A stretch of 64,000 bases of DNA from Deltaproteobacteria bacterium (GTDB lineage Bacteria; Bdellovibrionota; JAJCYS01), in assembly GCA_029262815.1 (NCBI GenBank), contig JAJCYS010000016.1, positions 411 to 64,410 on the forward strand. The letters run 5' to 3'. The notes under the pieces were generated by a model that saw nothing but the letters and a program-made list of their open reading frames with translations, made no database searches and was not told the DNA's origin. This document shows, piece after piece, positions 1 through 52,196 of the stretch; the stretch's first letter is position 1; each line of letters begins with the position of its first letter. A program made the translations under genes and the position numbers.

Positions 1-1881
1 TCGCTTTCCGGCTGTCAATTTAATTAAATCGCCTGACTGAATTTTTAAGCTTTTTGCTGTTTTAGCATTCATGCACAGCGCATTATCCCAAGTTAGCTTT
101 GTCATAGGATCAGGCAGCTCTTGCAACCATCCGTTGTTACCATATCGACCGTCGTAAACCGAGGCATCCAGATGGAAGTTTAACTCCAAACCTTTTAGCT
201 CAGGAATTCTCTGGGTTTTCAAAAATTGTTTAAAAGTTGCGACATTTGACGCTGATGCAGAGGTCTGTATTTTAGATTTAGGTTTTGAAATAATGCCGTC
301 GTGAATCCAACGACGCCATTTTTTTTCGAATCCGAGCGCGCCCATCTTTTGACGCCAATGGGTTTTCGTCCACGTGTAGGTATTTGTATGCTTGCCGAGC
401 ATTTTACTTATCAAATCAATTTTGGACCAACTCTTATATAGCGGCGCAATCAACGGCTGTTGCATACTTACAACACCTTCAGGTGTTTCGAGATCGCCCC
501 AAATTTCAAACTCATGCGTCATAGGAATATGCACCGACGCAAGTTTGGTTGTTTCATTCACCCTTAAACTTAAGTGAATAGAGTTGGGCACCCGTTGTGC
601 CAGTAACGTAGCAAACTCAGACTCAGCCGCAGCATCAAATGCGGGGTTGCCACCCAGCATAATCAACGACTGCACAGCACCCTGACGGATTCGCTTCACA
701 AGCCCATCCAAAGAATTGGGGATTGGATCTGCAGCAACCAATTGAATACCACGATTGACATTGCCCAGTGCTTCGTTCAAAAGAAGGGCTAGGGCGTGAA
801 CCCACGGCGCTTGCCGCTCACCCACAACCAAAGCGCTTTTGCCTTTGTTTTGAGCTAGGTCTTTAGCCAACGTTCGTACCCATTTATCTTGTCCAAAGGA
901 AGACCCTTTTAAATAAGCAGCCCATTCTTGGCCCAACACTTTTTCATCAACTAAGGCACGCGCTAGTGCAATTAGAAAAGGGCCTATTGCTTCACTTTTG
1001 AGTCTTAATCGATGGTCTGCCATCGCGCCTGTTGTAGAAAAATTAGGCTCAACCACATACAACCGATTCATACGGTCTGTTGGGTTCATAACCCGTCGAC
1101 CCTCGCTAAATTCACGTGTCGTTGCCAAGCTGTTTTTGCTGGTACCCAAAATATCGGCATCAATAGAAACTATAGTGTTCACATGGGTCAAGTCAGTTGT
1201 AACTTCATGACGAGGAAGTCCTACAAGGGCCAATCCTTGTCTTTCATGCCACGGATACGCATGGTCATGCACAAAAAGTTCAGCCTTCGGAAATGACATC
1301 TGAAACGTACTCACCAGCGCTTTAAAAGAAGGTGACTGTTGATGCGTCATTAGGAGCGTGAGTCCAGCACCGTCGGTTTTTTTAGCCGTTTCAACTTGCT
1401 TCTTTAAATACGCCTCAGTCACATCCCATGTCGCAGGCTTGCCTTGAACCAAAGGCTGCTGACTGCGATCAGGATCATACAAATCCCAAATTGCACCCTG
1501 CATCCAAGTATTCGAAACACCCTTGCTCTTGGGATGACTCGGGTTGCCATCTACACGGGTAGGTCGACCCTCATGACTCTCAACAAGCACACCGACCACA
1601 TTCGGCCCAGCTTGCATTGAAGTCGCAAAATAGAGGGGTTTGCCAGGAATGGTATCTTCAGGTCTACGCGTATACGGCAAAATCTTTTCTGCAGGTTTTC
1701 GTACACATCCACTCAGTGAGGCCAACCCGCCTGCTGCCATAGATGTCCCTAACAATTCCAAAAAGGTCCGTCGACTTAACTTTACACCCGCCCATTCTTT
1801 TTCTTTTATCTTAGAAACAGGCTCGGTGACGCCACCTAGTCCTTCGTCAATACTACGCCAATGGCGTTTCGTATTTTCCAT
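1..1881 (-). CDS. actB: Alternative complex III subunit ActB (Tat-exported molybdopterin-oxidoreductase-like/Fe-S subunit); runs off the window start
   Basis: Manual minus-strand translation from ATG at 1881: MENTKRHWRSIDE...LSRRTFLELLG (twin-arginine)...GCVRKPAEKILPY..RPEDTIPGKPLYFAT..ESHEGRPTRVDGNPSHP, typical of the ActB N-terminus; lies directly downstream of the ActA-like cytochrome. Confidence 0.85.
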   Translation of the reverse strand, partial: MENTKRHWRSIDEGLGGVTEPVSKIKEKEWAGVKLSRRTFLELLGTSMAAGGLASLSGCVRKPAEKILPYTRRPEDTIPGKPLYFATSMQAGPNVVGVLVESHEGRPTRVDGNPSHPKSKGVSNTWMQGAIWDLYDPDRSQQPLVQGKPATWDVTEAYLKKQVETAKKTDGAGLTLLMTHQQSPSFKALVSTFQMSFPKAELFVHDHAYPWHERQGLALVGLPRHEVTTDLTHVNTIVSIDADILGTSKNSLATTREFSEGRRVMNPTDRMNRLYVVEPNFSTTGAMADHRLRLKSEAIGPFLIALARALVDEKVLGQEWAAYLKGSSFGQDKWVRTLAKDLAQNKGKSALVVGERQAPWVHALALLLNEALGNVNRGIQLVAADPIPNSLDGLVKRIRQGAVQSLIMLGGNPAFDAAAESEFATLLAQRVPNSIHLSLRVNETTKLASVHIPMTHEFEIWGDLETPEGVVSMQQPLIAPLYKSWSKIDLISKMLGKHTNTYTWTKTHWRQKMGALGFEKKWRRWIHDGIISKPKSKIQTSASASNVATFKQFLKTQRIPELKGLELNFHLDASVYDGRYGNNGWLQELPDPMTKLTWDNALCMNAKTAKSLKIQSGDLIKLTAGKR

Positions 1882-1892
1882 CACCCCTTCAC

Positions 1893-2555
1893 TTACCGAT
1901 GACATGTTGAACAATCCACTTTTGGGTTTACTTGTCTCAATCGATGTGGATCTTTGGCCGGATCATACCCAGCTTTTTTGGGATCCCATCCTAAATCTGT
2001 CACTTTATCTAGAGGCCTCAAATTAGGGCCTGGATTTCGATGGCATTCAAGACACCAGCCCATGCTTAAAGGCTGATTTTGTGTCACAACTTCCATTTGA
2101 TCTACACGACCGTGACAAGATACACAACTCACCCCAGCTGAGACATGAATACTATGGTCAAAATAAGCATAATCAGGCAGCATATGTACCCGAACCCATT
2201 CAATGGGGGTATCTTTTGCAAAACTTTCTCTCACAGGAGATAGTTTTGCACTTTCGGGCAACACATAACTATGGCAAGTCATGCAAGTTTCAGTAGGGGG
2301 TATCGAAGCTTGTGCAGCATTCTCAACCGTGTTGTGACAATACCGGCAATCCATCCCTAAGTCACCCGCATGTAATTTATGACTAAAAGGTACTGGCTGA
2401 ACTGGGGCATACCCCACATCAGTGTACTTAGGTGAAAAGTAATACCAAATAAAAGCAATACATAAGACGACACCTACTGAAATACATATGCCCAGCAGTA
2501 TCGGTACCTTATTCGCCCACTTCGGAAAGATGTTAGACACGCAAGTCCCTTTCAA
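1893..2555 (-). CDS. actA: Pentaheme cytochrome c, alternative complex III subunit ActA (probable GTG start at 2540)
   Basis: Five CxxCH motifs (CRYCH, CMTCH, CVSCH, CLECH, CSTCH), GYAPVQPVPFSHKLHAG motif, N-terminal TM helix. Confidence 0.9.
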   Translation of the reverse strand: MKGTCVSNIFPKWANKVPILLGICISVGVVLCIAFIWYYFSPKYTDVGYAPVQPVPFSHKLHAGDLGMDCRYCHNTVENAAQASIPPTETCMTCHSYVLPESAKLSPVRESFAKDTPIEWVRVHMLPDYAYFDHSIHVSAGVSCVSCHGRVDQMEVVTQNQPLSMGWCLECHRNPGPNLRPLDKVTDLGWDPKKAGYDPAKDPHRLRQVNPKVDCSTCHR

Positions 2556-2737
2556 TCAAATTTGCTTGTCAAAAAAAAAGCGACCATTTTTACATTTACT
2601 TATGTTCAGAGCTGACTGAAGCTTTTGGGCTTCCCTTAGCTCAGCAGGTAGGCTTTATTAATGCAAATAAACCCATACCCGTTCGATCATCCCTAACCTA
2701 TCACCGGCCCAAGTTCAGGTAAAGGATTTTTCTGAAC

Positions 2738-3514
2738 TTATCGAGAGCGCTGCGTCGCTTGTGAAATTCTTACTGCAAGGGCGAACATAATCAAAGCAAA
2801 TCCACCCAGTACGCCCACACAAAGTCCCAACGATGGCTCACCCTCAATCACACCACCCCAAAAACTATGCTTAAGACCTCCTACTAAATAGGACATAGGA
2901 TTTAAGCCCATGAGAAATCCTAAATATTTACCCGAAACAGGAAAGAGAGCCCCTGACGCCGCCCACAAAGGCAACAACACAACACTCATTACCCCATGAA
3001 AGGCAGCTGTTGAATTCAACACCCATGCCAAGGCAAAAGTTAAACATGTCGTACCAAAAGCACCCATCACCACGACAGCCGAAAGTAAAGGCCATGATAT
3101 ATGGGCGGTCGAAACATCCGTGACGGGTATTAAACAAACCAGTAGCCCTACCTGAATACATGTAATAGATACAATACCCAACACTTTTCCCAATACCAGC
3201 GACCAACGGGGGCCTGGCACAATCAGCATGGACTGCAAAAACCCGCTTTGTCGATCTTCAATCAAAGTCATGGAACCAAACAAAGAGGTAAAAAGTAAAC
3301 ATAAGGCGATCATACCGGGGAAAAAGTAAGTCAACGCGTTGAGTGACGTCTGCTCAGGTCTCATAACTTGAAACACATCAGCCATACCAAGGCCTAACAA
3401 AGTCCAAAAAATAATGGGTTGAAGAATCACACCCACCCAGCGTGAAAGCTCCTTGCGTGTACGCAAAAGCTCTCGCCACCACAACACACGAACCACAGCG
3501 ATGGCATACATCAT
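2738..3514 (-). CDS. ABC-2 type transporter permease
   Basis: Six hydrophobic segments, FFPGMIA, EDRQSGFL and LNPMSY motifs; coupled to an ABC ATPase. Confidence 0.85.
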   Translation of the reverse strand: MMYAIAVVRVLWWRELLRTRKELSRWVGVILQPIIFWTLLGLGMADVFQVMRPEQTSLNALTYFFPGMIALCLLFTSLFGSMTLIEDRQSGFLQSMLIVPGPRWSLVLGKVLGIVSITCIQVGLLVCLIPVTDVSTAHISWPLLSAVVVMGAFGTTCLTFALAWVLNSTAAFHGVMSVVLLPLWAASGALFPVSGKYLGFLMGLNPMSYLVGGLKHSFWGGVIEGEPSLGLCVGVLGGFALIMFALAVRISQATQRSR

Positions 3515-4440
3515 TTTGCACCGGCCTCTTGTCGTTCACCCAAAGGTTTGCCTGTAATCTTCACAAACACATCAGCTAAGCTGGGAGATTTCAATCGAAT
3601 CGATGATATTGCAACCTCTTTTAGAAGAGGAAGGATCTTCGGCAATAATAGATGACCCGCTTCACACTCTAAATAAACGGACCGCCCGCTGTGAAAGCTC
3701 CTATTTGACAGGGTGTCTTGTAATTGACGTGATAAAGATTCAGGTTGAGTGGTTTCCAACTCCACCAAGTCATGCGAGACCCTTTTTCTGAGTTCATCGG
3801 GCGATCCTTGTGCAACAATACTTCCTTCATCAAGGACAAAAAGATGATCGCACCGCTCGGCTTCATCCGATCGATGGGTTGCCAACAGGATAGTCACATT
3901 TTCCTTATGCTTTTCTAATCCGTCCCAAAAAAATCTAAAATGATGTTCGTCCAACCCTACGGTTGGTTCATCCAAAAAAAGCAGGGTAGGTTCCGGCAAT
4001 AATGCTCTAACTAAGTCCACACGCCTTTTTAATCCAGCTGAAAGATGGCCCACAGGATCATTTCGCCTGTCTTGCAACCCATGTTGAGACAACATCCTAT
4101 CTATTCTCTTTTGCACATTTGGAATTTGATACGCCCATGCCGTCAAGCGCAAATTTTCCTGTACGGTGAGTTTGTCATCTAAGCTGAGGTTCTGAAACAC
4201 CATGCCGATGCAGGCTTTTTGAGATCGCGTGAGCTGAGTGATTGGTTTTCCAAAAACAGTAAGCGTTCCTAGCCGAGGCGTCAACTCTCCAGCTAAAATC
4301 GACATGACAGTCGATTTCCCACATCCATTGCGGCCTAACAAACCACAGATGGAACCTTTATGCACATCTAAAGACAGGCCATTCAACACGGGTCGACGGT
4401 CATAGGCAAACCACAAATCGGTCAAGGTCAGGACAGACAC
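3511..4440 (-). CDS. ABC transporter ATP-binding protein (DrrA-like)
   Basis: Walker A GRNGCGKS, LSAG signature, Walker B LLFLDEPT. Confidence 0.9.
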   Translation of the reverse strand: MSVLTLTDLWFAYDRRPVLNGLSLDVHKGSICGLLGRNGCGKSTVMSILAGELTPRLGTLTVFGKPITQLTRSQKACIGMVFQNLSLDDKLTVQENLRLTAWAYQIPNVQKRIDRMLSQHGLQDRRNDPVGHLSAGLKRRVDLVRALLPEPTLLFLDEPTVGLDEHHFRFFWDGLEKHKENVTILLATHRSDEAERCDHLFVLDEGSIVAQGSPDELRKRVSHDLVELETTQPESLSRQLQDTLSNRSFHSGRSVYLECEAGHLLLPKILPLLKEVAISSIRLKSPSLADVFVKITGKPLGERQEAGAK

Positions 4441-5301
4441 TTAGAAAACCTGATCCAAAATCAGTCCCAATACAATAAGAGGCAAATAAACCAGAGAACT
4501 TCTAAAAAAATGTCGTGCCCACACCACAACCGGTTTATCTGTAGTCCATCCTTTTACAGCATAAACCAAATAAAGTAGCCCAGCACATGCTGCACATATG
4601 CCGTAGGCCCAACTTGCAACATCATAGGTGATCAGTAAAAAACTCGTACCGATCAGAGCGAGCGTGTACATCAAGGCTTGCCATTTGGCGACCTCTATAC
4701 CCCACGAATGAGCAACCGTTTGGATACCTGCTCGTTGATAGTCCTCGAAGCAATAAATTGAAATGGCCAAAAAATGGGGCATTTGCCAAAAAAATACGAT
4801 CAAAAATAATATGTTTCCTGCTGCACTAAACTCGCCGAGCATCGCGACCCACCCGATCAACGGCGGCATCGCGCCGGGCACAGCACCAATCACCAAGGCC
4901 CAAGGCGTTACACGTTTTAAAGGCGTGTAGAGTGCCACGTAGAGTCCCCAACTTATGACTGCGAGGCCCATCACAAGACCATCATCTAACACCCAAAATC
5001 CGAGTAAACTCACAACGCCTAACACAATCCCCAACCCCAACGCACTTCGAGCCGACATACGCCCAGATGGCAAGGGTCTATTTCGCGTACGTGCCATGAG
5101 CCCATCTGTTTCTCGTTCAAGGTACATATTAAAGACATTCGCTGAAGCGACGATTAAAGCGGTTGCAATCATGGTCAAAAGTGCTCGAAATTCATCGAAC
5201 TGTGGTGCTAGCGCCATTGCGCCACCCGTCATGACCAAAACCATAAAAACGATTCTTGGTTTTGTTAGCGCAATTGCATCTTGCAATTTAAACTCTTTCA
5301 T
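4441..5301 (-). CDS. ctaB: Protoheme IX farnesyltransferase (heme o synthase)
   Basis: LTKPRI, D-x-x-MARTRNRPLPSGR, YTPLKR, FFWQMPHFLAI motifs. Confidence 0.93.
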   Translation of the reverse strand: MKEFKLQDAIALTKPRIVFMVLVMTGGAMALAPQFDEFRALLTMIATALIVASANVFNMYLERETDGLMARTRNRPLPSGRMSARSALGLGIVLGVVSLLGFWVLDDGLVMGLAVISWGLYVALYTPLKRVTPWALVIGAVPGAMPPLIGWVAMLGEFSAAGNILFLIVFFWQMPHFLAISIYCFEDYQRAGIQTVAHSWGIEVAKWQALMYTLALIGTSFLLITYDVASWAYGICAACAGLLYLVYAVKGWTTDKPVVVWARHFFRSSLVYLPLIVLGLILDQVF

Positions 5302-7017: not shown

Positions 7018-7112
7018 GAAAGTCGCGACTTGAATTCGACCCCTTCTTTCTCGTCTATACCCACGCCTTAAGTATTTTCCGTATACGCCGAATAAACCTA
7101 TAGGAGATCAAG

Positions 7113-7388
7113 ATGGGTCGTGTATGGAGTGTATGTGTTATTAGTTTATTGTTTTTTGGATGTACATCAACGAATCGAACCAACCCTCACAACGAGATTG
7201 CGGGCGAAGAAGCACGGGCAATACAATGCCTGAATTCTGACGACCCCAGTCAGTGTGGATCCGCAGGATATACCCCACTTGAACCGGGATACTATAGAGC
7301 GGCTGATGAATTCACAAATTTACCTAAATTTTCAGAAGAGCCACCGCCCGTTTATTTTACGGATTCAGAGCCTTTGCCCCTGTTTTAG
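7113..7388 (+). CDS. Small hypothetical lipoprotein
   Basis: AGGAG RBS upstream; signal peptide with lipobox-like FFGC. Confidence 0.55.
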   Translation: MGRVWSVCVISLLFFGCTSTNRTNPHNEIAGEEARAIQCLNSDDPSQCGSAGYTPLEPGYYRAADEFTNLPKFSEEPPPVYFTDSEPLPLF

Positions 7389-21464: not shown

Positions 21465-23912
21465 TCAAAGCTGTTTTTCAGAAATGGGCATTTTTACGTT
21501 GTAGGATTTCAGGTTTAAACTCGCGCCGGCCATCCGGCGATGTATGACGAGCAATTCTGTGATGTCCTTTGGACTTTCCCCCTGCATTAAATGGCTAATT
21601 CGCATCCATTTTCCAGAAATAGCTTTGAGACTCGGAGGGTCAAACGCTAAGGTCACTTTTTTTCCATGTCGTGTACGAAGATACAGAGACACCGGCAATG
21701 CATCATCCGTTGATTCTAGATTCACCTTGATCAGGATATCGCCGTCCACAAACCCGTTACGTGTAATCTGGATAGGAAAGACATGTTGCCCATAGGCTAA
21801 GTTCGAGTTTGGAGCGCGGTAGTACGTCTCTCGACTTTTAACTTTTCGCTCTATCGGCAGATTTTTCTCCGCGAAAACCATATGTCGTTTTCGATCCGTA
21901 TACCCCACTCGAATGCTATACCGGTGGCGACTATCTACACGTTCAGGCAACTTAAATTGTAATAGGCTCTCAAAATCGTTATCCCCTCCAACTAATGCAG
22001 ATACCCGTTTGGTACGTTTCTGAATCTGCTTATCATCCATCCAGAGCGACCCTACAATATATGCACGTCCTACAAACCCTTTAGATGGCAGTTTTACGTT
22101 AACTGAAACAGAAAGATTCTCTCCTGACTCATAGGGTTTTGGCTCGTCATAGCTCAAGCTCACTTGGGGGCTTTGAGCATCACATAAATTTAGTCGCTTA
22201 CCCAGGCCTTGTTTTGAAAAAATAGCATTTACAGAACATTGAAGATGGTTGGGTGATTTTAGTTTTGGATCTCGGGACAAGAGTAAATTGATACTTTGTG
22301 GCATGTCATGCATGTTAGACGCCATCGTCATCGCTTTCAAAAACAAGGTTTTTAAGGTGCGATAGGTCCATTCGGCTGAATAAATACTTTGCCATGCAAG
22401 AATGAGATTCCAAAAAGCAGATCCCAAGATTTCACCCTCAAAGTGAACTTCCCCTCGATGTAAGGGATAAGAACGATCGATTCTTAAGTCACGAATATAG
22501 TGATTATAAAAATGGTCTTTATAATGTGCACCAATGATCGGAGATTTGAGGTGTAACATTGCCATCACATCCCCAAACCCTTCACTGGACGCTGAATCAG
22601 AAATCCCGCCCGTTTTGAAATCTAGGTAATGACCCAATTCATGGTAGATGATGCTTGTGGATAGTCCTGCTGATTGACACTGTCCTGTACTAGGACCATA
22701 AAAGACAAAGTGAGAAGGACGAAGCATGATATTGCCCGCCTTTATCTCATAGCCGTAATAGGCATTACAGCGTTGATTCGTTGGACTGTAATCCACTACC
22801 ACGGGTAACGCATACCCTGAATCGACATTACTCATTTGGCTTCCTGCTGAGAGCAACCCTTGTTGCAAATAATAGAAAGGCATCGTGACATCGAGGGGTA
22901 GCCACGACGTAAAATTATTACCTAAGGGAGAATTTGCTGTGAGGGTAAAAGATTTTTTAAATGGACTAACAGGTAGGGCTTCATTCGCGGTTCCACCTGA
23001 ATATCCGACTTGAATTTGTGAGTTTTCAAAAACGAGCTTCATCTTCGAGAACGACTCTGCATCAAATGAAGCTTCGCCCGACGTATCGGTTCGAAAATGC
23101 TTGAGCATCCCCTCCGCATCCTCAAGCTCTATAGCCAGCTGGGGCAACGGTACCGTTTTTTTCTTGCTGAGAATATGGGTTTTATGGACTTTTGTTTTTA
23201 TCGCATGCGTACCACTATCATGAGCTTTCAAAGGATGAAAGGCGATGATATCGCCTGTTTGCAAGTCCACCTTGAGTTCCACATAGGCAGCCTCCGCTTT
23301 TAAATAAAACAGGAAGGTGTACACTTCATGAAACAAATCAGTTTTGGACGTGTATCGATAAGACAGAGGCTTCTCTTGCTCTAGTGTGTAATCCGTATCT
23401 TGCCCATCATCAAACTCGATAAAAGTTTTGGCTTTTTCTAAAGCCCCTTCGTAATCAAAAACACGTGCTTTCGTCGTTTTAGCGGCCGTTCCCTTATAAA
23501 AGACACGAGGTGGGTAGCTCGGTCGTCGATAGATGGCCGCATAGGCATCTTCAAATGGGGTTCCATCCTCGATGCGGGGGTAGATATAAATATCCTCATT
23601 CCCTACTTCAAATGCTTTGGGCGTTGAGGTATAGCGTTTGGGATCTAAGGAGATGTCACTGTTATCCAAAACAGCAGCCCCTTGCCCCATAGAACTTTTC
23701 TGGACAAGCTGTCTTGCTGTTTGATGCACAAATGGGGTCTTTGTTTTGCACTGGTGGGTCTCTGATCTCGGAAATAGTATCTTTCGATTGTTTTTAGCGG
23801 CCAAATTAAGATAAGTGGTCGCTTCTATAGCAAATAGGGGCTCACTCCCCCACACAAAACACAAACTGATACATCCTATGATACGGCTGACTGTCATCTC
23901 ATCCCCCAACAC
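21465..23912 (-). CDS. Secreted zinc metallopeptidase (gluzincin, M4/M36-like) with C-terminal extensions
   Basis: CNAYY, HELGH zinc motif, SEGFGD third ligand, EVHFEGEI; signal peptide and propeptide-like region. Confidence 0.75.
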   Translation of the reverse strand: MLGDEMTVSRIIGCISLCFVWGSEPLFAIEATTYLNLAAKNNRKILFPRSETHQCKTKTPFVHQTARQLVQKSSMGQGAAVLDNSDISLDPKRYTSTPKAFEVGNEDIYIYPRIEDGTPFEDAYAAIYRRPSYPPRVFYKGTAAKTTKARVFDYEGALEKAKTFIEFDDGQDTDYTLEQEKPLSYRYTSKTDLFHEVYTFLFYLKAEAAYVELKVDLQTGDIIAFHPLKAHDSGTHAIKTKVHKTHILSKKKTVPLPQLAIELEDAEGMLKHFRTDTSGEASFDAESFSKMKLVFENSQIQVGYSGGTANEALPVSPFKKSFTLTANSPLGNNFTSWLPLDVTMPFYYLQQGLLSAGSQMSNVDSGYALPVVVDYSPTNQRCNAYYGYEIKAGNIMLRPSHFVFYGPSTGQCQSAGLSTSIIYHELGHYLDFKTGGISDSASSEGFGDVMAMLHLKSPIIGAHYKDHFYNHYIRDLRIDRSYPLHRGEVHFEGEILGSAFWNLILAWQSIYSAEWTYRTLKTLFLKAMTMASNMHDMPQSINLLLSRDPKLKSPNHLQCSVNAIFSKQGLGKRLNLCDAQSPQVSLSYDEPKPYESGENLSVSVNVKLPSKGFVGRAYIVGSLWMDDKQIQKRTKRVSALVGGDNDFESLLQFKLPERVDSRHRYSIRVGYTDRKRHMVFAEKNLPIERKVKSRETYYRAPNSNLAYGQHVFPIQITRNGFVDGDILIKVNLESTDDALPVSLYLRTRHGKKVTLAFDPPSLKAISGKWMRISHLMQGESPKDITELLVIHRRMAGASLNLKSYNVKMPISEKQL

Positions 23913-43196: not shown

Positions 43197-44038
43197 TGAT
43201 CTTTGCTTTTACTCTGAAGAGTTGAATCCTCACTTTGGAGTGAATCAGAAGCTGTTTTCGATTGACGTCTATACAACCCGCATTTAGAATCTTTGCAAAA
43301 ATTAATCAGGTGTGTCGCATAAACTGACTCCATCTGAGCCAACATACTTAATGCTTTGTCGAAGGGATATGGTCGCGTAATTAATATATGAAAAATTGTT
43401 TTTATATCTTTGATTGCTTCAGATGTAAATCCTCGGCGTCGTAACCCGACGAGATTAATTCCTTGCACACGAAATGGGCCGCCTTTCCCCGACACAAAAG
43501 GTGCGATATCTTTTCGGATTTCACTACCGCCTGCAATATATGCGTGCGCTCCGACGCGACAAAACTGTGCGATACCCGTCATGCCACCGATGATTGCATG
43601 TGTTTCGATGGTCACATGGCCACATAATGAAACCGCATTGGCCAACACGCATTCATCCTCTATGATGCAGTCGTGTGCGATATGGCAGTATGCCATAATT
43701 AAGTTTTTGTTACCCAACCGAGTGATATTGCCACCCCCTTGAGTTCCTTTGTTAATCGTCACATATTCACGAATGACGTTATAATCGCCGATGATCACTT
43801 TGGCACATTCACCAGAGTATTTTAAATCTTGGGACATGCCCCCAATAACCGAAAATGGATGGAATACATTGTGGCTTCCGACTTCTAAAGGGCCCTCTAA
43901 CACAACATGTGATCGAACTTCTGTATGGTTACCTAATTGAACATTCTCACCAATAATGCTGTAAGGACCAATTACACAATCTCGACCCACTATTGCCTTG
44001 GGGTGAACTTGAGCCGTAGGATGAATTTTTGATGTCAC
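43193..44038 (-). CDS. lpxA: UDP-N-acetylglucosamine O-acyltransferase
   Basis: IHPTA hexapeptide repeats, QDLKYSGE, IREYVTINKGT, HIAHDC, INLVGLRRRGF. Confidence 0.95.
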   Translation of the reverse strand: MTSKIHPTAQVHPKAIVGRDCVIGPYSIIGENVQLGNHTEVRSHVVLEGPLEVGSHNVFHPFSVIGGMSQDLKYSGECAKVIIGDYNVIREYVTINKGTQGGGNITRLGNKNLIMAYCHIAHDCIIEDECVLANAVSLCGHVTIETHAIIGGMTGIAQFCRVGAHAYIAGGSEIRKDIAPFVSGKGGPFRVQGINLVGLRRRGFTSEAIKDIKTIFHILITRPYPFDKALSMLAQMESVYATHLINFCKDSKCGLYRRQSKTASDSLQSEDSTLQSKSKDH

Positions 44039-44122
44039 GATCCGTCCTTAGATCACCAGATGCCACATATATCCCTTTCAGTATATCAAATCAGAACCTG
44101 TCTCAAAATATACTTCGTGACA

Positions 44123-44305
44123 TAGGGCGTGTCATCATAAGGGATTTGTAGCGAGGAAATTGAGATTTTGAGCCGAAACGAGGAGATTGAGTGAAAAAAC
44201 CGCAGGTGTAGTAGCGCTACATCGAGGATGTTTTCATGAAAATCGACGAAGTTGTAGGCCAAAAGATCTATTCCACAGTAGAATCCCTTATGATGACACG
44301 CCCTA
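44123..44305. mobile_element. MITE with 24-bp perfect terminal inverted repeats (including terminal TA)
   Basis: TAGGGCGTGTCATCATAAGGGATT (44123-44146) / AATCCCTTATGATGACACGCCCTA (44282-44305); no ORF inside. Confidence 0.75.
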
Positions 44306-44322
44306 AATAGCTTTTACGCTGA

Positions 44323-45399
44323 TCAACGATACACTATTTCTAGTTTTGAACCTGGAGGTGGGGGGGCGTTCAACTCCAAAAAGAATCGACCTTCTGGCGT
44401 ACTAGGCGTTTCCAATCGGTAAGCTTGCCGTGGCAATTCGTTACCGTTGATCAGTACGCGAATAATATCTTCTGTCACTATTGTTCTTAAGGCATATCGT
44501 GTGGGTGGTTCTGAGACTCCTTTCCCAAATTGAATCATAATATTTTCAATCTGGGTGTCTGTTTGTGTACTACCATCTCGGTTGATGACAAACAATTCGC
44601 CTTTAGCCACGTTGGCACTTAATAATTCAACCATGCGTTCTGCACCCGAGATTTGAGGCTGCCCATTAATGGGCGGTTGTTTAAGATCTCTAACCAGCTC
44701 ATCCAATCCAACGTTACTGTAATCTTTTCCGGATTTAGGGGAGCGAAGAAATGCCCAGATATTCACAAAATGTCTGGACGTTCGAATTTCTTTGAGTTGG
44801 GGGATGAGCCTTGCCAGGGCCTCCCGCGTAGATCGATCATGGCCATCTGCATCCCCAAAAAATACAATATTTAAAATCGTACGTTTTCTTGCCTCAGCAA
44901 ATTTCTGAAGACTCAACTCCATTGCATTCCAGAGTGACGTCTGGACGGGAAAATTTGGATTAAAAACAATTCCAAATCCAGTCAACAAACTATTTCGAAA
45001 GTTGCCAAGATTCTCTTTCAATGTATTTGTGAATGCTGCATGATTACCATTAAACCCTGCAATCCGAGTGTTAGCGTCACTGCTTACATGGGTAGACGTT
45101 AGATAAACAAGGTAACTGAATGCAATTTCACCTGGATTCTCTTGACTGCTAATGGTTTCCATCGTGTCAACCCAACGATTCAATGCTTTGCGAATCGTGT
45201 TTCCCACACTGCGCATACTGTCGGAAGAGTCTACAAGCAATAGTATATCTGATGTCTGAGGAATATCTTCAACTTGAACGATCTCACGACTGCCTATTCG
45301 TTCAATACGCTTACCTTTACCCCCTTGGGCACACCCTTGCCCCAAGACAGCAAAGATACATACGCATAAAACGGTCCTCAAAGGCATACCAGTGTACAC
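44323..45399 (-). CDS. vWA-domain lipoprotein
   Basis: Lipobox-like GQGC; MIDAS DILLLVDSSDSM; IVFFGDAD. Confidence 0.65.
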   Translation of the reverse strand: MYTGMPLRTVLCVCIFAVLGQGCAQGGKGKRIERIGSREIVQVEDIPQTSDILLLVDSSDSMRSVGNTIRKALNRWVDTMETISSQENPGEIAFSYLVYLTSTHVSSDANTRIAGFNGNHAAFTNTLKENLGNFRNSLLTGFGIVFNPNFPVQTSLWNAMELSLQKFAEARKRTILNIVFFGDADGHDRSTREALARLIPQLKEIRTSRHFVNIWAFLRSPKSGKDYSNVGLDELVRDLKQPPINGQPQISGAERMVELLSANVAKGELFVINRDGSTQTDTQIENIMIQFGKGVSEPPTRYALRTIVTEDIIRVLINGNELPRQAYRLETPSTPEGRFFLELNAPPPPGSKLEIVYR

Positions 45400-45499
45400 T
45401 CCTTATCTTCTGAATCGGTAAATACTGAAAATCATTAAGAGGTTTATACTGTTTCGCTAGTTTTGGTAACTAGCTGGGTAAATTCGGGTGCTTGAACGG

Positions 45500-45524
45500 G
45501 TTATTCTCGCGAAAGCGAGGATTT
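45500..45524. repeat. Degenerate REP-like hairpin
   Basis: GTTATTCTCGC-GAAA-GCGAGGATTT, GNRA-loop palindrome related to the other REP-like copies. Confidence 0.45.
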
Positions 45525-45769
45525 AATAGAATTTAGATTGCTCATATGGATGACCAACCGGCATGGAGAAAATATCCTCTGTTCAGTTCCTGAACAGCAA
45601 CACCTTCAGAAATCACAGCGGCCTTCGCCTCATAGGGCTACCAGACGCTGTGATTCATTCTTTTTCGTCCGATAGCATTTATCTAACGGAACCGGGGATA
45701 ATAACCTGGACAAAGCCAAGGGTACGGCAGCGCAATCCGTAGACGACGCTGATCTGACAAAACCTTGTA

Positions 45770-45881
45770 CTCACCAAACGAAAACCGAGGTTGTTGTTGC
45801 GTTTAGACGGCCTATTGTTGTTACGATTGGCCGATCGGCAGTTCTCAGCGTTATTGTTCCAACTGCCACCGCGTATCGCAC
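45770..45881 (-). repeat. DGR template repeat (TR)
   Basis: 112-nt non-coding copy of the target's 3' end with 11 AAY codons; reads AIRGGSWNNNAENCRSANRNNNRPSKRNNNLGFRLV; differs from VR only at A positions plus one codon indel. Confidence 0.95.
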
Positions 45882-45914
45882 AGCTCTCAACCTGGCTCGG
45901 TCATTATGCCACGA

Positions 45915-46916
45915 TTAGGGTGACACAATTTCCTTTCTTCTTAAAGCCAAAGTGTTGGCATGAGATATGTGGGCGATCATGCTTGATACCGAAGCTGTCA
46001 ACTCCTCTTCTGAGATTTCGCATTTCATGTAATTGGCTTCTTTTGATTTCACTTTCTTCCTGAAACGCACAAGGTTGGACCGTTGCAATCGTATTAAGTT
46101 GGGAAATACCCGAAATCCCAAAAAGGAAACCCCTTCTGTTGTAGGTCCAAGGGTTGTTATTTTTTCCTTCAACCTAAGTTTTAATTTTGCCTCTAAAAAT
46201 TTTTGAATTTCATCTAACACTTCACGTAACACCTTCTTGCTTTCAGAAAAACATATAAAATCATCCATGTAACGTACATATCCCCCAACCCGAAGACGAT
46301 CTTTTAAAAAATGATCAAGCTCCCCTAAATAGGTATTTGCAAAATGCTGACTTGTCAAATTTCCGATGGGCAATCCCTTTCCCAGTTGATTCCCCGGTAC
46401 GGCATGGTTAATAATTATATCCAGTAAGCTCAATAGTTTTTTGTCTTTGATCATTTGACTTAGAAGTCTTTTTAAGACGTTATGATCAATATTTTCAAAG
46501 AACTTTTGGATATCGCATTTCAAAAAATAGGGATACTTTCTTGAGAAGATATGAACACGTTTTAGTGCCTTATGTGTTCCCTTTCTAACTCGACAGGCAT
46601 AGGTGTCAGATATGAACCGCCGCTCAAATAGAGGTTCAAGTAAATTGCAAATGGCGTGATGAACGACACGATCTCGAAACGCTGAGCAACATATATTTCG
46701 TACCTTGGGCTCTCTTATTTCAAACATCCTATAAGGGCTAGGGCGGTAGGCCCCATTTTGTAACTCACCATGTAATGAAACAATTTCATGCTCTAAATTA
46801 TAATTGAAAGATGCTGCGGATATCTTATGTCGTTTTCGACGAAGTGCCTTGAAAGCAGCCAACAGTAGGTTTTCAATGCAGATCACTTTCGCATATAGAT
46901 TCCCGACTCTCTTCAT
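45915..46916 (-). CDS. DGR reverse transcriptase
   Basis: FRDRVVHHA, KGTHKA, CDIQKFF, GLPIGNLTSQHFAN (DGR-type GxxxSQ), YVRYMDD, FLGF; 333 aa with no maturase or endonuclease domain. Confidence 0.95.
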   Translation of the reverse strand: MKRVGNLYAKVICIENLLLAAFKALRRKRHKISAASFNYNLEHEIVSLHGELQNGAYRPSPYRMFEIREPKVRNICCSAFRDRVVHHAICNLLEPLFERRFISDTYACRVRKGTHKALKRVHIFSRKYPYFLKCDIQKFFENIDHNVLKRLLSQMIKDKKLLSLLDIIINHAVPGNQLGKGLPIGNLTSQHFANTYLGELDHFLKDRLRVGGYVRYMDDFICFSESKKVLREVLDEIQKFLEAKLKLRLKEKITTLGPTTEGVSFLGFRVFPNLIRLQRSNLVRFRKKVKSKEANYMKCEISEEELTASVSSMIAHISHANTLALRRKEIVSP

Positions 46917-47296
46917 TTTCTTACATTTTGATGTTTTAGCCAGCCCCCCATCATTTTTCCGATTTCGTTGATTGAAAGCATAGCAAATTTATAGGATTGA
47001 ATGGCCATCAGTTTTTGTTCAAAGCAAATTCTGAGTAGTATACGGATTTTTTCTAACTTTATGTTGGCCCTTTTTAATATTCCAACTTTTGATTTTGAAA
47101 ATCGTGCTTCAATCAAATCTTCTACAATATCTAAGGCCAAATTGTTGAGTCGATCTGAAAATGTAAACCTCACTTTCTTTGGAAATTTTTCAGTTGTTAA
47201 AAGTAACCACTTTAAGAAATCTACCCATTTTGTAAAAATTGGAAGATCGCTATTATCGACTGATTGAAGCTGGTTTTGAATATCCAAAGGTGTCAT
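46913..47296 (-). CDS. avd: DGR accessory variability determinant (Avd, four-helix bundle)
   Basis: KFPKKVRFTFSDRL..LEKIRILLR..EIGKMMGGW; stop overlaps RT start (ATGA). Confidence 0.9.
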   Translation of the reverse strand: MTPLDIQNQLQSVDNSDLPIFTKWVDFLKWLLLTTEKFPKKVRFTFSDRLNNLALDIVEDLIEARFSKSKVGILKRANIKLEKIRILLRICFEQKLMAIQSYKFAMLSINEIGKMMGGWLKHQNVRK

Positions 47297-47320
47297 TTTT
47301 ACGGTTCTGGCTTACGATAT

Positions 47321-47791
47321 TTAACCATCTCCAATATCTATTTTAGAAATAGAAAGAATTTCTTGCCCATATTTTTCGACCTTGGCATTACCAATGCCCT
47401 CTATTTTTGTCAAATCAGCTTTCGTCTGGGGACGTGTTTTAACGATTTGAGCCAGTTGATTGTTGTTGAAAAGGATATAGGGTGGCACTCCTTCATTCTT
47501 ACTTTTTTCAGATCTCCATTCTCGCAAGATATTAAATAACCCCATATCAGATTCAGTCAAAACCTTCATCCAAGATTCGTTTTTTGAATTTCTTCGCGTT
47601 GACTTTAGTTGAATGGCTTGATCTGAAAGATGATATTCCACCAATAAAACCAGATAAGGGGTATTGTTTGTTTGAATCAAGTAATCTCGAATTGAGATGA
47701 CATTTTTGTCTTTTATAAAATTCTGGAATTCTGAGTCATCAAACCCGTCAACCGTATGTTTAAATTTGAATGTAAAAATTTTGACGAGCAT
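47321..47791 (-). CDS. HRDC-domain accessory protein of the DGR
   Basis: LFNILREWR..EGVPPYILFNNNQL..RPQTKADLTKIEGIGNAKVEKYGQEIL is a canonical HRDC; short N-terminal domain. Confidence 0.88.
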   Translation of the reverse strand: MLVKIFTFKFKHTVDGFDDSEFQNFIKDKNVISIRDYLIQTNNTPYLVLLVEYHLSDQAIQLKSTRRNSKNESWMKVLTESDMGLFNILREWRSEKSKNEGVPPYILFNNNQLAQIVKTRPQTKADLTKIEGIGNAKVEKYGQEILSISKIDIGDG

Positions 47792-47919
47792 ATTGTCTTT
47801 TCAAACCTGTTTCGTTGAAGACCTTGGGGCCTCGCGCTCGGGCCTGTAGCCCTTCATAGCTTGGCCCCTTCAGGCTTCAGCTTATCTTACCAAGGGTAAA
47901 AGTGTAAAAGGGCAAAGGA

Positions 47920-48867
47920 TTACTTTTTTGCCCTCACCAAACGAAAACCGAGGGAGCCGTAGTAGCGTTCAGACGGCCCATCGCCGTCACGAATGGCCGA
48001 ACGGCAGACCCCAGCGCTATTGACCCAACTGCCACCGCGTAGCGCACGTTCGGTCCCTTTATCCGGCCCTGTGGGATCTTTCATTGCTTCTTTAGGATAT
48101 TTTTTATACCAATCCTGAACCCACTCCCACACATTGCCATGCATATCATAGAGTCCCCAATCATTGGCTTTCTTCGTCCCAATTGGATAGGTTTGATTCC
48201 CTGAATTATACCCATACCATCCATACTCCTTTAGATTCGAAGCTTCGTCTCCAAATGAGTATGCTGTTTTTGTTCCTGCACGGGCCGCATACTCCCATTC
48301 AGCTTCTGTTGGCAAACGGTAGGTATACCCATCGTCTTTTTCCATCACGTTTAACTTTTTGAGAAACCCTTCTTCTCCGGCAATGTTCTTCCAAGATACC
48401 TTTTCCACCGGGTGATTGGGACATAGACCTATCTCCTTACCGTCTTTCTTCACTTTCTTATGTGTGTCTTCACAATGCCTCTCTTCTGAAAATTCGGATG
48501 GATTCAACCCCATCACATCAAACCACTGTTGTTGCGTCACCTCTGTCGTCATGATCTCAAATGACTTGGTGAGCGTTACTTCATGTTGCGTTTCGTCATC
48601 ATCTCTATCTGCTTCACTAGCTGGAGATCCCATCTGAAAGGTTTTGGGGAATGTGAGTTTCCCCACCGTTTTACCGGGTTGGATATGTACCCATTTCATT
48701 CCATGCGATCCTTCTACAACAGGTGTTGGTGAACCCTCTGTCTTTTCTTCTTTTTTCTCAGGTTGTTTAGTGATTTTTTGTGATGGACTGGAGGGTTGGT
48801 TGCCTCCACTACATGAAACTAAACCCACGACACCTAAACACTGAACTACTGTCATTAAATGACGCAT
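47920..48867 (-). CDS. DGR target: lipoprotein with FGE-sulfatase/C-type-lectin fold domain
   Basis: RBS then MRHLMTVVQCLGVVGLVSC lipobox; FQMGS, TEVT, HPVEKVSW, RLPTEAEWEYAARAG, WGLYDMHGNVWEW, RGGSW..GFRLV. Confidence 0.92.
   Translation of the reverse strand: MRHLMTVVQCLGVVGLVSCSGGNQPSSPSQKITKQPEKKEEKTEGSPTPVVEGSHGMKWVHIQPGKTVGKLTFPKTFQMGSPASEADRDDDETQHEVTLTKSFEIMTTEVTQQQWFDVMGLNPSEFSEERHCEDTHKKVKKDGKEIGLCPNHPVEKVSWKNIAGEEGFLKKLNVMEKDDGYTYRLPTEAEWEYAARAGTKTAYSFGDEASNLKEYGWYGYNSGNQTYPIGTKKANDWGLYDMHGNVWEWVQDWYKKYPKEAMKDPTGPDKGTERALRGGSWVNSAGVCRSAIRDGDGPSERYYGSLGFRLVRAKK
47933..48047 (-). repeat. DGR variable repeat (VR)
   Basis: 115 nt at the target's 3' end; encodes ALRGGSWVNSAGVCRSAIRDGDGPSERYYGSLGFRLV; matches TR except at TR adenines plus 3 extra nt. 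Confidence 0.95.
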
Positions 48868-49019
48868 AAAGACCTCTCCTCCCTCAAAAATACTCCCTAT
48901 GCTACATGAAATCGGTTTATCTTTGAAGAAATAAACTGAATTTTGATACACACTTGATTATAAAAAAGTTTTTTGTATCTACATGCGGTATCTATCCTGA
49001 CATTGGGGGGTATGGAATG

Positions 49020-49076
49020 GATTGCTTCGTCGGACCTATGGCCCTCCTTGCAATTGCGAGCGTAAGCGAAGCAATC
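49020..49076. repeat. REP-like palindrome upstream of the DGR target
   Basis: GATTGCTTCG (49020-49029) / CGAAGCAATC (49067-49076). Confidence 0.6.
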
Positions 49077-49108
49077 TGATGGAATAGCCAAAAATATGGT
49101 GTTGGATT

Positions 49109-49693
49109 TTATCCGGTATAGCGTCGACTTGTATGTTTTTCTAAAGTTTCTACGACTGGATTCTTGATCAAATGTTGCAATCTGAATTTTTGCGCATCAT
49201 CTTCGAGAGAACTAACTTTTCGAATGTAAGATTCTCGCTGGTTCTCGACTTCTTCAACTTTTTTCCACACCATGAGGCGAAATCGATTCAAGGAATCTTC
49301 TAGTTCTTTCAGCTGATCCTTCTTTCTAGACATGAAGGGATCTTTAAAGTCGCCAAAAGACATTCTTCTTAACCGACGCTCATATGCGAAAGCAGGCCCT
49401 GCAATTCGATGGCTCATTAAGATTGCTAACCCAAAAGACAACAATGCGTACACAATAAATACACCAAGCAAAAGTGCAAAATTGATGCCTACGGTTGTCC
49501 AAAAGATAGTTTGCATTTGTGAAGACATCCCCATCTTCTGGATAAACCAATAGTTCAAACCAGCAACCCCAGAAAATAATACAAATCCTGAAATCACAAA
49601 TAACAAACAACTCTTAAATACATAATTGGCATAAGACCCCTGGAAATCACGGTCCACCAAATATGATTTTCTTCTATCTTTTTGCTGACTCAT
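49109..49693 (-). CDS. Two-TM membrane protein with HAMP-like domain
   Basis: RRKSYLVDRDFQ, two TM helices, SHRIAGP..GDF..RKKDQLKEL. Confidence 0.7.
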   Translation of the reverse strand: MSQQKDRRKSYLVDRDFQGSYANYVFKSCLLFVISGFVLFSGVAGLNYWFIQKMGMSSQMQTIFWTTVGINFALLLGVFIVYALLSFGLAILMSHRIAGPAFAYERRLRRMSFGDFKDPFMSRKKDQLKELEDSLNRFRLMVWKKVEEVENQRESYIRKVSSLEDDAQKFRLQHLIKNPVVETLEKHTSRRYTG

Positions 49694-49847
49694 ACACCCT
49701 GCTTTTCGGCTGTCAGGCAGCTTTCTTAAGCTAAATTGATAAGCTTATTAAAACCAACCTAAGTTAGTTGGCAAGGAAACGATTTGGGCTGGTGCTAGTT
49801 CTCGAAAAACGATGCGATCTTATTGTTTTGTTATTTTAGAATAAACT

Positions 49848-52196
49848 TTATAAGTATTTAGAAATTAAGGACTTTTTGTTTTTTCGTATACCGTCCGGTG
49901 TTCCCTGGGAGATCAATTCCCCCCCTTCTGGACCTCCACCCGGCCCTAGCTCCACAATATGTTGAGCCTGAGAGATAACATCTGTTTGATGCTCAATCAC
50001 AAACACGCTATTCCCATGTGCAATCAGCCGAGCGAACAACTTGAGAAGAAATTGAATATCATAAGAAGACAACCCTGTCGTCGGTTCGTCCAAACAATAA
50101 ATGTGACCCTGCGCTTTCCGTTTAGATAGTTCATAGATCAATTTAACCCGTTGTGCCTCACCACCCGATAAGGTTGAAGTCGGCTGCCCTAATGTTAAAT
50201 AACCAAGCCCAAGATCCAAACATAAGCGCAGGGGGGAAAATATTTTGGGATAGGGTTGAAAAAATGTAGCGGCCTCTTCAACCGTCAAATCTAAAACCTC
50301 AGATATGGTTTTATCTTTGTACCGTACACGCAATAAAAAATCTGTAAAGCGCCTGCCATGACAAATCTGACACGGCATTTTGGCTTGAGGTAAAAAATTG
50401 AGTTCAAATCGCTCCATCCCTGTGCCCAAACATTGCGGACATCGGAATGGACTGGTATTAAACGAAAAATCCCTAGCTGTCAGACCGCGGATACGCGAAG
50501 AGGGTGAAGCTGCAAACAAGGCTCGGATTAATTGATATATTTCAAAATAAGTCACCACTGCACTTCGAGAACTTTTCCCGATTGGGTCTTGGGTTACCCA
50601 GTACACGTTGTGATCTCTTTTTTGTAACTCTGGTAGTACAATCTCGAACAGTAGAGTACTCTTCCCGCTTCCGCTTACGCCCGAAAAAACAACCAGTTTT
50701 TCTAACGGTAAAGTCAATTTTGAAATTTGCACATTTCGTTTTGAGATATCGGACAAGGTAACTGATTTTTCACTTGATGATTCAGGGATATCTATTCGAG
50801 GACCTTCCATTTTAAAATAAGCATGCGTCTTCGAATTTTTAACTGATTTTCGCTTAACAAATCGATCCGTTGTCCCAGAATATACAACCGTACCGCCATG
50901 CAACCCACCACCCGGGCCCAATTCAACTAAATAGCTGGTCGTTTTCAGAAAAGATATATCGTGTTCAATCACAATAACCGTATTATTTTGGGCCAACGCT
51001 TTAAGCTGTGCAACAAGAGCATGTGTGTTTTGAGGGTGCAACCCGATGCTAGGTTCATCAAATAGATAGAGCATCCCAGAGGTCGTTTGATTAATTTGAC
51101 TACCAATTCGAAGACGCTGTGTTTCGCCTCCCGATAATGTGTCTGCACTTCGACACATCGGCAAATATCCTAATCCTAGCTTATTCAGGACTGACAGCTT
51201 CCCTACCAATTGAGACAGCATCACCTGCTCAACATCACTCCCGCCAATCTTTTTACCAAACATCTCATAAACATCACTTAAGATAGCAGAACTCGCTTCT
51301 TTGAAGGCAATCCCATGATAGGACACTTGTCCATAAGTTGGATGTATACGACTGCCTTGACAAGTCTGACAGGTTTCATCACCCACACCCTCACAGGTGG
51401 GACATCTGCCAAACGGGTTATTAAAAGAAAAATGATGCGGTTCATAATATCGATCTTGTTTCGCAAATGCTGTCTCAGCATTACCCGTACGACACAATAG
51501 CGCTCGACCTTGAAGTGTCTGAAGATGCGTTTCATAACCTTTCAGTTTTTGATCTGAAATGCCATGGTCAGGATTCACCCGGTCGATCATGACTGCCACT
51601 CGATGCTTTTTTCTGGCATCCAAGCTCAGATCAGACGTCAATGTAAGTTGTTCACCATCAACCCAAACGTACACAAACCCAAGTTTCAACAGCTTTTGAA
51701 AGACAATGTGAAAAGTCCCTTTTTTCTGCTCTTCAAGTAACACACCTATTTCGGTTCGTTTAGACTGGCCGCTCAACTGAGATACAAAAGCGGGTAGATT
51801 ACGAATGGATAGAGCCTGTTGATCAATGCCAGAAGCTCCAAATCGGGCATACAATAGCCTCAAGTAATCGAGCACTTCCGAAACAGTACCCACGGTACTT
51901 CTCTTCGATCCAATACGTGTTTTCTGGTCTATCGAGATGCTGGGCCTCAGATATGAAATACGCTTCACCTTTGCAGGGGATTGAATTCGCATATAACTCT
52001 TTGAGTATAAAGATAAACTCTCAAAGTAAAGTCGCTGACTTTCTGTAAACAAGGTGTCCTGAACTAATGAACTTTTACCCGATCCACTGGGTCCCGTAAT
52101 ACCAATAAGTGTATTGTGAGGAAGTGATAGGTCTACATGCTTTAGATTGTGCTCATGTGCACCCAAAATAACAAGGTGGCTAGCGTCACGTTTCAT
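49848..52196 (-). CDS. uvrA: Excinuclease ABC subunit A, shortened
   Basis: GAHEHNLK, GPSGSGKSSL, LSGGETQR, DEPSIGLH; second NBD GVSGSGKST, LSGGEAQR, DEPTTGL. Confidence 0.9.
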   Translation of the reverse strand: MKRDASHLVILGAHEHNLKHVDLSLPHNTLIGITGPSGSGKSSLVQDTLFTESQRLYFESLSLYSKSYMRIQSPAKVKRISYLRPSISIDQKTRIGSKRSTVGTVSEVLDYLRLLYARFGASGIDQQALSIRNLPAFVSQLSGQSKRTEIGVLLEEQKKGTFHIVFQKLLKLGFVYVWVDGEQLTLTSDLSLDARKKHRVAVMIDRVNPDHGISDQKLKGYETHLQTLQGRALLCRTGNAETAFAKQDRYYEPHHFSFNNPFGRCPTCEGVGDETCQTCQGSRIHPTYGQVSYHGIAFKEASSAILSDVYEMFGKKIGGSDVEQVMLSQLVGKLSVLNKLGLGYLPMCRSADTLSGGETQRLRIGSQINQTTSGMLYLFDEPSIGLHPQNTHALVAQLKALAQNNTVIVIEHDISFLKTTSYLVELGPGGGLHGGTVVYSGTTDRFVKRKSVKNSKTHAYFKMEGPRIDIPESSSEKSVTLSDISKRNVQISKLTLPLEKLVVFSGVSGSGKSTLLFEIVLPELQKRDHNVYWVTQDPIGKSSRSAVVTYFEIYQLIRALFAASPSSRIRGLTARDFSFNTSPFRCPQCLGTGMERFELNFLPQAKMPCQICHGRRFTDFLLRVRYKDKTISEVLDLTVEEAATFFQPYPKIFSPLRLCLDLGLGYLTLGQPTSTLSGGEAQRVKLIYELSKRKAQGHIYCLDEPTTGLSSYDIQFLLKLFARLIAHGNSVFVIEHQTDVISQAQHIVELGPGGGPEGGELISQGTPDGIRKNKKSLISKYL

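Follow-up and report, generated by a model that had tools for sequence, protein, structure and literature searches.

The DNA analysed here (the window) is a 64,000-nt stretch of contig JAJCYS010000016.1 (positions 411 to 64,410, forward strand) from the Deltaproteobacteria bacterium assembly GCA_029262815.1, and the subject is a locus on its minus strand that had been annotated from the sequence as a complete chromosomal diversity-generating retroelement (DGR). At 45560-48951 five elements followed one another head to tail: a target gene ending in a variable repeat (VR), a gene for an HRDC protein, avd, a reverse transcriptase (RT) gene and a template repeat (TR), in the order given by the initial annotation (Table 1). 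All open reading frames (ORFs) in this row were intact in the ORF listing, again as annotated, and the avd stop and the RT start overlapped by 4 nt.

TR and VR aligned along their whole length. Of the 112 nt of the TR core (45770-45881), 32 were adenines and 80 were not; the 19 substitutions between the two cores all fell at TR adenines (12 A>G, 6 A>T and 1 A>C), and none of the 80 non-adenine positions had changed (Fisher p = 2.5e-13). The differences remained A-specific on realignment, and the loss of specificity that had been named beforehand as contradicting a DGR was not seen. The adenine-specific pattern means that rewriting of the VR has happened one or more times in this lineage; because no non-adenine core position has changed, it has not drifted since it was last written. 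By codon position, TR adenines numbered 18 at position 1, 13 at position 2 and 4 at position 3. The VR makes up the last ~40 codons of the target gene, and the 18 variable TR codons, 11 of them AAY, would allow about 10^17.8 possible protein forms.

At an (AAC)3 run the VR was longer than the TR by one codon (TCC, residue 333). Each of the four VR codons at this run ends in C, the extra codon having the form NNC. Because the TRs of related elements also carry three AAY codons at this position, the most likely origin of the extra codon is slippage of the RT while cDNA was being made. Among 52 TR/VR pairs with adenine bias, taken from related genome loci and the window, three had gained one codon at an AAC run (the window, L081 and L092), and one of 67 viral TR/VR pairs had lost one. 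We considered the codon indel as a sign of decay and rejected this, because such AAC-repeat indels occur in 7% of DGRs: according to the consulted sections of Wu et al. 2018 (PMC5758913), TR and VR differ in length in 25 of 372 DGRs, and 74% of these indels lie beside AAC. The codon indel is a known by-product of homing. At the end of the repeat, 21 nt were identical in both copies, followed by TA in the TR and GG in the VR; a difference of the same kind after an identical stretch was present in the 10 closest relative pairs inspected. The dinucleotide change sits at the position expected for the boundary between the initiation of mutagenic homing sites IMH and IMH*.

The translated RT contained both motifs reported for it initially, GLPIGNLTSQ (with IGNLTSQ) and YMDD. 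RVT_1 (E = 2e-21) was the sole Pfam family above the cut-off, and the Pfam search found no maturase domain (GIIM). The best PDB match was bRT of Bordetella phage (8ub7; E = 1.9e-50, 175 bits, residues 2-322 of 333), compared with E = 1e-27 and 100 bits for group II RTs and E = 1.3e-06 and 31 bits for retron RTs. When the alignment to bRT was compared by eye at functional residues named in the consulted part of the bRT structure preprint, K29, F66, R74, I76, I181, G182, Q187 and the catalytic aspartates of YMDD were kept. A maximum-likelihood tree of 36 rows was built from 30 hand-chosen related RTs, the window RT, BPP-1 Brt, two further RTs lacking a maturase domain and two with a group II maturase domain, the latter pair from genomes of the same phylum; sampling of other RT classes was thin and included no retron or defence RT. 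The window RT fell inside a 34-row clade holding BPP-1 Brt, split from the two maturase-bearing RTs with 100/100 support. The clade mixed several phyla, and the rows nearest to the window RT were metagenome-assembled genomes (MAGs) of Bdellovibrionota. A grouping with group II intron or retron RTs had been given in the initial annotation as a reason to abandon the DGR assignment. On the group II side, the tree and the bRT match both placed the RT with Brt instead; on the retron side, the sequence match was weak, the tree containing no retron RT.

Accessory genes beside the RT, a DGR trait, were present in the form of both avd and the HRDC gene. Avd passed the NCBIfam model NF033474 (DivGenRetAVD) with 107 bits against a cut-off of 80 and matched Pfam bAvd (E = 2.1e-19). 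The HRDC protein matched Pfam HRDC (E = 3.6e-22), and its PDB matches were RecQ HRDC domains. It consists of an N-terminal domain (residues 1-55), a linker and the HRDC domain; its AlphaFold model had a pLDDT of 91, and residues 80-149 superposed on the RecQ, WRN and BLM HRDC domains with an rmsd of 0.8-1.4 Å in Foldseek. Residues 1-55 (47627-47791, minus strand) form a beta-alpha-beta-beta unit that was conserved across 36 aligned DGR accessory homologues; Foldseek returned no confident structural match for it, the confident matches being to HRDC only. A complex prediction for the RT with the HRDC protein gave no answer (score 0.01, mark 0.32), which speaks neither for nor against binding.

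The target ORF as mechanically called has 343 codons and a GTG start at 48951. A GGAGGAG Shine-Dalgarno sequence precedes ATG 48867, which is probably the true start judging from the sequence, and the precursor read from there has 315 aa. A lipobox-like pattern match lay at residues 44-47 of the long ORF, equal to residues 16-19 from ATG 48867, and the target is predicted to be a lipoprotein precursor whose first 19 residues end in L-V-S-C. The lipobox was followed by a low-complexity linker, modelled as disordered (pLDDT < 50, residues 1-45), and then by a lectin-fold domain. The C-terminus matched the FGE-sulfatase domain of Pfam (E = 7.4e-46). Treponema denticola TvpA (2y3c) was both the best PDB sequence match (E = 2.9e-31) and the best fold match of the AlphaFold model (pLDDT 80; Foldseek E = 8e-18, TM 0.72 normalised to TvpA), showing that the VR lies at the 3' end of an ORF encoding a C-type-lectin-fold protein, which is itself a DGR trait. 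The elements with the nearest RTs (L017, L019, L021, L023 and L024) have far longer targets, of ~1030-1120 aa, which share only the C-terminal lectin-fold domain with the 315-aa window target.

The 421 nt from the RT stop onward (45500-45920) folded with z = -3.0, better than 100 of 100 shuffles. In an alignment of 14 sequences (the window and 13 relatives), this RNA contained hairpin P1 (45727-45753), whose 12-nt loop is conserved, a single-stranded box that is likewise conserved, a variable hairpin and, at the end, the long hairpin P3 (45612-45654), conserved in its interior. Compensatory changes were found at 17 of 20 pairs. Paired cells reached 94.6%, compared with 64.5% in shuffles (0/500 as high) and 35-43% when partners were slid. 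A covariance model built from the alignment (R1) scored 138.9 bits in the window and found the RNA in 55 of 83 sources (57 matches, 14 of these sources being its own training rows), as well as in 35 of 80 viral loci. With one exception, in the inverted second cassette of L093, the matches lay on the RT strand beside the TR. Of the 35 in viral loci, ~30 immediately preceded the RT, which is the place of the Spacer in BPP-1. No Rfam match was found in 44000-50000 at E <= 1. A structured RNA is expected here: according to the consulted part of the bRT preprint, the TR is followed by putative stem-loops for Avd binding in 207 of 278 DGRs. The alignment did not support a candidate template:primer duplex in which 4 bp would pair the TR end with the RNA (columns 12-15/84-87): 88.5% of its cells were paired, no compensatory change was seen, and one pair was unpaired in 5 of 13 sequences. 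The terminator-like hairpin beyond the RNA is the probable 3' end of the cassette transcript, as read from the sequence. A promoter scan gave nothing above chance (6 found, 9.1 expected).

The inverted repeat at the VR end (7-bp stem GGGCAAA/TTTGCCC, 10-nt loop) had no counterpart after the TR, a likeness to BPP-1. It was AT-rich, in contrast to the hairpins of phage DGRs, which the consulted part of Guo et al. 2011 describes as GC-rich with stems of 7-10 bp and 4-nt loops. GC-rich inverted repeats were recorded in only 127 of 372 DGRs in the sections of Wu et al. 2018 (PMC5758913) cited above, and inspection by eye showed that the window hairpin was not kept as a hairpin in every relative. 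Directly next to it came a tandem direct repeat with a score of 8, compared with a shuffle mean of 4.0 (p = 0.01). Many related elements carried two to four copies of a 7-8-nt unit after the VR stop; the unit sequence was lineage-specific, and the position and the 7-8-nt period were kept. In a scan of the 70 nt after the VR (L017-L098, loci that are related and not independent), 26 of 52 VRs scored above their own shuffles (p <= 0.05). Scores averaged 7.0 for VRs, compared with 4.3 for TRs (Wilcoxon 3e-7), behind which tandem repeats were absent. A score of at least 8 was reached by 20 of 52 VRs and by 28 of 576 ends of other ORFs in these loci (Fisher 1.8e-11). Such a repeat also followed some remote second targets (L029b, L046b). 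Part of this signal could be due to shared descent or to a role in termination, the latter being possible because many of the units are T-rich. A tentative and on the whole doubtful idea is that the tandem repeats mark the VR as the homing target in this RT clade, in place of the GC-rich cruciform of the BPP-1 type. Should they be functional, they would represent a previously unrecognised cis element that serves to recognise the target or to integrate the cDNA, and Avd or the HRDC protein might bind it. The consulted passages of the literature searched held no description of tandem repeats after the VR.

Table 1. Features of the DGR locus and its borders (window coordinates; -, minus strand;., no strand assigned).
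Feature	Position	Strand	Description and basis
Target ORF	47920-48951; 47920-48867 from the likely true start, ATG 48867	-	Pfam FGE-sulfatase
HRDC gene	47321-47791	-	156 aa; Pfam HRDC
avd	46913-47296	-	127 aa; NCBIfam NF033474, Pfam bAvd
RT	45915-46916	-	333 aa; Pfam RVT_1, bRT match
TR	45765-45881	-	117 nt, downstream of the RT stop; core 45770-45881
VR	47928-48047	-	120 nt, 3' end of the target gene; diversified part 47954-48042
Structured non-coding RNA	45593-45776	-	~180 nt, directly after the TR, the place of the Spacer in BPP-1; covariance model R1
Terminator-like hairpin	45569-45597	-	8-bp stem, then a T-run; consensus scan, pattern match only
Inverted repeat at VR end	47910-47933	-	includes the stop codon; fold
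Tandem direct repeat	47892-47910	-	8 nt, ~2.4 copies; shuffles
Predicted signal peptide ending in lipobox L-V-S-C	48811-48867	-	pattern match only
REP-like dispersed repeat	49012-49077	.	10-bp perfect inverted arms; blastn against the assembly
Short dispersed repeat, TR side	45530-45572	.	blastn against the assembly

The related genome loci numbered 82, spanned many phyla and included several cut by contig ends. Their gene orders were target-HRDC-Avd-RT in 29, HRDC-Avd-RT in 12, target-HRDC-RT in 10, HRDC-RT in 4, Avd-RT in 9, target-Avd-RT in 5, target-RT in 2 and the RT alone in 11. HRDC-Avd-RT was thus present in 41 of 82 loci; the 12 without an upstream target gene lay on cut contigs. The HRDC-containing arrangement is frequent on the present relatives. 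It is also already in print: the order of genes in the window falls under Architecture C of Wu et al. 2018 (PMC5758913), whose consulted sections count HRDC-containing cassettes in 14 of 372 DGRs, about half of them with avd. One relative, L026, had two 1-nt indels between TR and VR (4652-4778, 7027-7153) and a stop in the extracted target ORF, and may be a decaying DGR. Another, L099 (8932-10803), was an IMG/VR contig with a target-HRDC-Avd-RT-TR cassette, an RT 60% identical to that of the window and, 3 kb downstream, a gene for a large terminase (GpA domains, E = 1.6e-84 and 1.1e-78). L099 also carried a HicB/RHH antitoxin-like gene, and its target had additional Lcl_C and weak astacin matches.

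Among described systems, the T. denticola DGR (TvpA, 2Y3C) shares with the window element a lipoprotein target with an FGE-type C-type-lectin fold and the VR at its C-terminus (PMC4891356), together with an HRDC accessory gene in the cassette and a chromosomal locus (PMC4891356, PMC5758913; consulted in part). In T. denticola, however, the HRDC gene lies between TR and RT with no avd mentioned in those parts, whereas the window order is HRDC-avd-RT-TR; its strains are described there with several targets, whereas one VR was found in the window assembly. The two target proteins are ~30% identical. The BPP-1 DGR resembles the window element in its RT, homologous over the full length with functional residues kept, in Avd, in the adenine-specific transfer from TR to VR and in having a structured non-coding RNA directly after the TR. 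By contrast, BPP-1 (mtd-avd-TR-brt) is phage-borne with a tail-fibre target, and the window element is chromosomal with a predicted lipoprotein target; the TR stands before the RT in BPP-1 and after it in the window, where the HRDC gene is extra. Legionella pneumophila reportedly has a chromosomal DGR that diversifies a surface-displayed lipoprotein, LdtA, like the window element. The Legionella element has a MutS-like accessory gene and no HRDC gene according to the consulted sections of Wu et al. (PMC5758913).

That the locus belongs to the DGR class is almost certain. Very probably it is also a complete chromosomal DGR working by a BPP-1-like mechanism, which is the best explanation of the evidence above. 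By analogy with phage BPP-1, the cassette would be transcribed, and a complex of RT and Avd would bind the TR and the structured RNA behind it. cDNA synthesis would begin at the 3' end of the TR, the RT inserting random bases opposite template adenines, and the cDNA would then replace the VR at the 3' end of the target gene while the TR stays unchanged. The outcome would be a surface-tethered lipoprotein with a variable ligand-binding face on a C-type-lectin fold.

Several observations qualify this account. The best NCBIfam match of the RT was a group II RT/maturase model, below threshold with 156 bits where 300 are required; the families listed for it included no DGR-RT model. R1, run with filters off over BPP-1 1500-5000, missed the Spacer, its best match being elsewhere at E = 0.063; because the model does not detect the BPP-1 Spacer, the BPP-1 priming mechanism is carried over to the window by analogy. 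The inverted repeat after the VR lacks the GC-rich form with a 4-nt loop that BPP-1 needs. The read data came from three runs of one study, with no RNA run listed; two of the three, labelled biofilm metagenome, contained the locus. They were available as Logan assembled contigs at ~5x depth and showed no differing base within the cassette, the VR included, in either run, contigs of this depth dropping rare variants. A 1484-nt contig of the first run (X1, 47067-48550) matched the window without a difference, and its origin may be the source sample itself. A contig of the second run (X2) ended at 48002, inside the VR, and contigs broke in many places at this depth. None of these points speaks against DGR identity; those that bear on present-day activity are the low-depth contig data, which by themselves are evidence in neither direction, the form of the inverted repeat and the undetected Spacer.

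A first alternative is a genuine DGR that is now silent, with its genes intact, homing ceased and the VR frozen as an ordinary lipoprotein allele. Such an element would fit the uniform VR in the low-depth contigs and the atypical hairpin, and the decay signs in L026 indicate that elements of this clade can decay. However, the four ORFs were intact, the catalytic motifs of the RT were kept, and the RNA scored as high as that of the relatives. Because 0/80 non-adenine core positions differ between TR and VR, the time for drift since homing last took place has been short. We therefore regard silence as unlikely, and a DGR still active today as the rather likely state, as far as the sequence can indicate it.

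A prophage or other mobile element, diversifying a phage receptor-binding protein as in BPP-1, was weighed as the next explanation. The viral contig L099, with the same cassette close to a terminase gene, and the related RNA in viral loci would be in keeping with it. By contrast, none of the 54 window ORFs scanned against Pfam had an integrase, transposase or phage domain, as had been noted for the locus initially, and the surroundings were confirmed as housekeeping by the neighbouring genes: LpxA, Dus, MarC, CNNM, a RadA-like ATPase, enolase, PriA and CarAB, together with LepA, GreA, a UvrA-like ATPase, phosphoglucomutase, PdxA and the Nuo operon. The target had a predicted lipoprotein signal and no tail-fibre architecture, and the composition of the cassette matched the genome. 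At this locus the prophage reading is largely refuted, and we consider it very improbable. That RT and repeats might instead be a group II intron, retron or defence RT beside a chance repeat is next to inconceivable: the sub-threshold NCBIfam match and the names 'retron-type' or 'group II intron RT' that some database sources give to relatives of the RT are outweighed by the missing maturase domain with RVT_1 alone above the Pfam cut-off, the lack of any intron or retron RNA in the Rfam search, the place of the RT with Brt in the tree, the adjoining Avd recognised by a curated DGR model and an adenine-only pattern impossible for a chance repeat. A group II intron was rejected on the GIIM, Rfam and NCBIfam results, and a retron on the weak RT match and the Rfam result.

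The DGR had also been described as AT-richer than its flanks, bordered by REP-like palindromes and probably horizontally acquired; the first two statements stood in part, and the third found weak support. The HRDC-avd-RT segment was indeed AT-rich: its GC content of 0.362 lay at the 5th percentile of 6754 windows, the genome having 0.416 +/- 0.030. The whole cassette was not: its GC content was 0.409, and its tetranucleotide distance was ordinary, 42% of 1319 genome windows being at least as far. On the target side, the repeat at 49012-49077 had perfect 10-bp inverted arms (49067-49076 and 49020-49029) and ~13 further copies of 23-40 nt in the assembly (blastn, E <= 0.05), in both orientations. 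On the TR side the border was a short dispersed repeat. A palindrome scan with a 12-nt minimum gave nothing strong. The TR-side repeat recurred as 40-44-nt matches of 90-91% identity at the ends of contigs C45, C44 and C25, which suggests that it breaks the assembly. REP-like repeats gather in intergenic DNA generally and say nothing of transfer. The five flanking genes queried (orf358, LpxA, orf194, the UvrA-like gene and Dus) stood beside none of the relatives' cassettes, the sole weak flank match being a Dus-like gene 1.4 kb downstream of the RT in L076. Together with the mixed phyla of the RT clade and with L099, this indicates indirectly that the cassette type is evidently mobile over evolutionary time. 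A recent arrival by horizontal transfer was unsupported by composition, since GC content and tetranucleotides of the whole cassette match the genome. It is plausible that the putative function of the cassette is to serve its host.

Neither of the ORFs adjoining the cassette (44323-45399, 49109-49693) matched a Pfam family, and neither occurred beside the cassettes of relatives. The first, directly downstream of the cassette on the minus strand, encodes 358 aa, matched no NCBIfam family either, and had a signal-like hydrophobic start and a DSSDS motif that by eye recalls a vWA metal site. The UvrA-like double ABC ATPase that adjoins the cassette (49848-52196, minus strand) has 782 aa and is presumably shorter than canonical UvrA. 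Two other large minus-strand ORFs, 1-1914 (638 aa, open at the window edge) and 21465-23912 (815 aa), matched no Pfam family at E <= 1e-5.

The assembly comprises 2.12 Mb in 53 contigs, is 94.5% complete and contained one RT of the DGR kind and one VR. Among 40 genomes compared, no relative closer than the same phylum was found. The nearest RTs, with 57-65% identity, came from MAGs labelled Bdellovibrionota or 'Deltaproteobacteria'. For PriA the nearest match was 48% identical, and the named matches with at least 94% query cover were MAGs of Bdellovibrionaceae, 'Deltaproteobacteria' and Gammaproteobacteria, each 37% identical. Based on these similarities, the host is probably a member of the Bdellovibrionota.

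The locus adds no new principle to DGR biology, the class, architecture, target fold, accessory genes and AAC codon slip all being in print. Its value is as a clean example: a single-target cassette with intact HRDC and Avd genes in a small 2.1 Mb genome of a deep uncultured lineage. In the papers found by our literature search, no main text discussed DGRs in Bdellovibrionota. The by-products of the analysis are possibly more useful than the locus itself; these are the covariation-supported RNA model without an Rfam family, the tandem repeats after the VR and the conserved N-terminal domain of the HRDC accessory protein, and they leave the DGR class unchanged. If the host is predatory, a hypervariable surface lectin would, speculatively, be a candidate prey-recognition protein.

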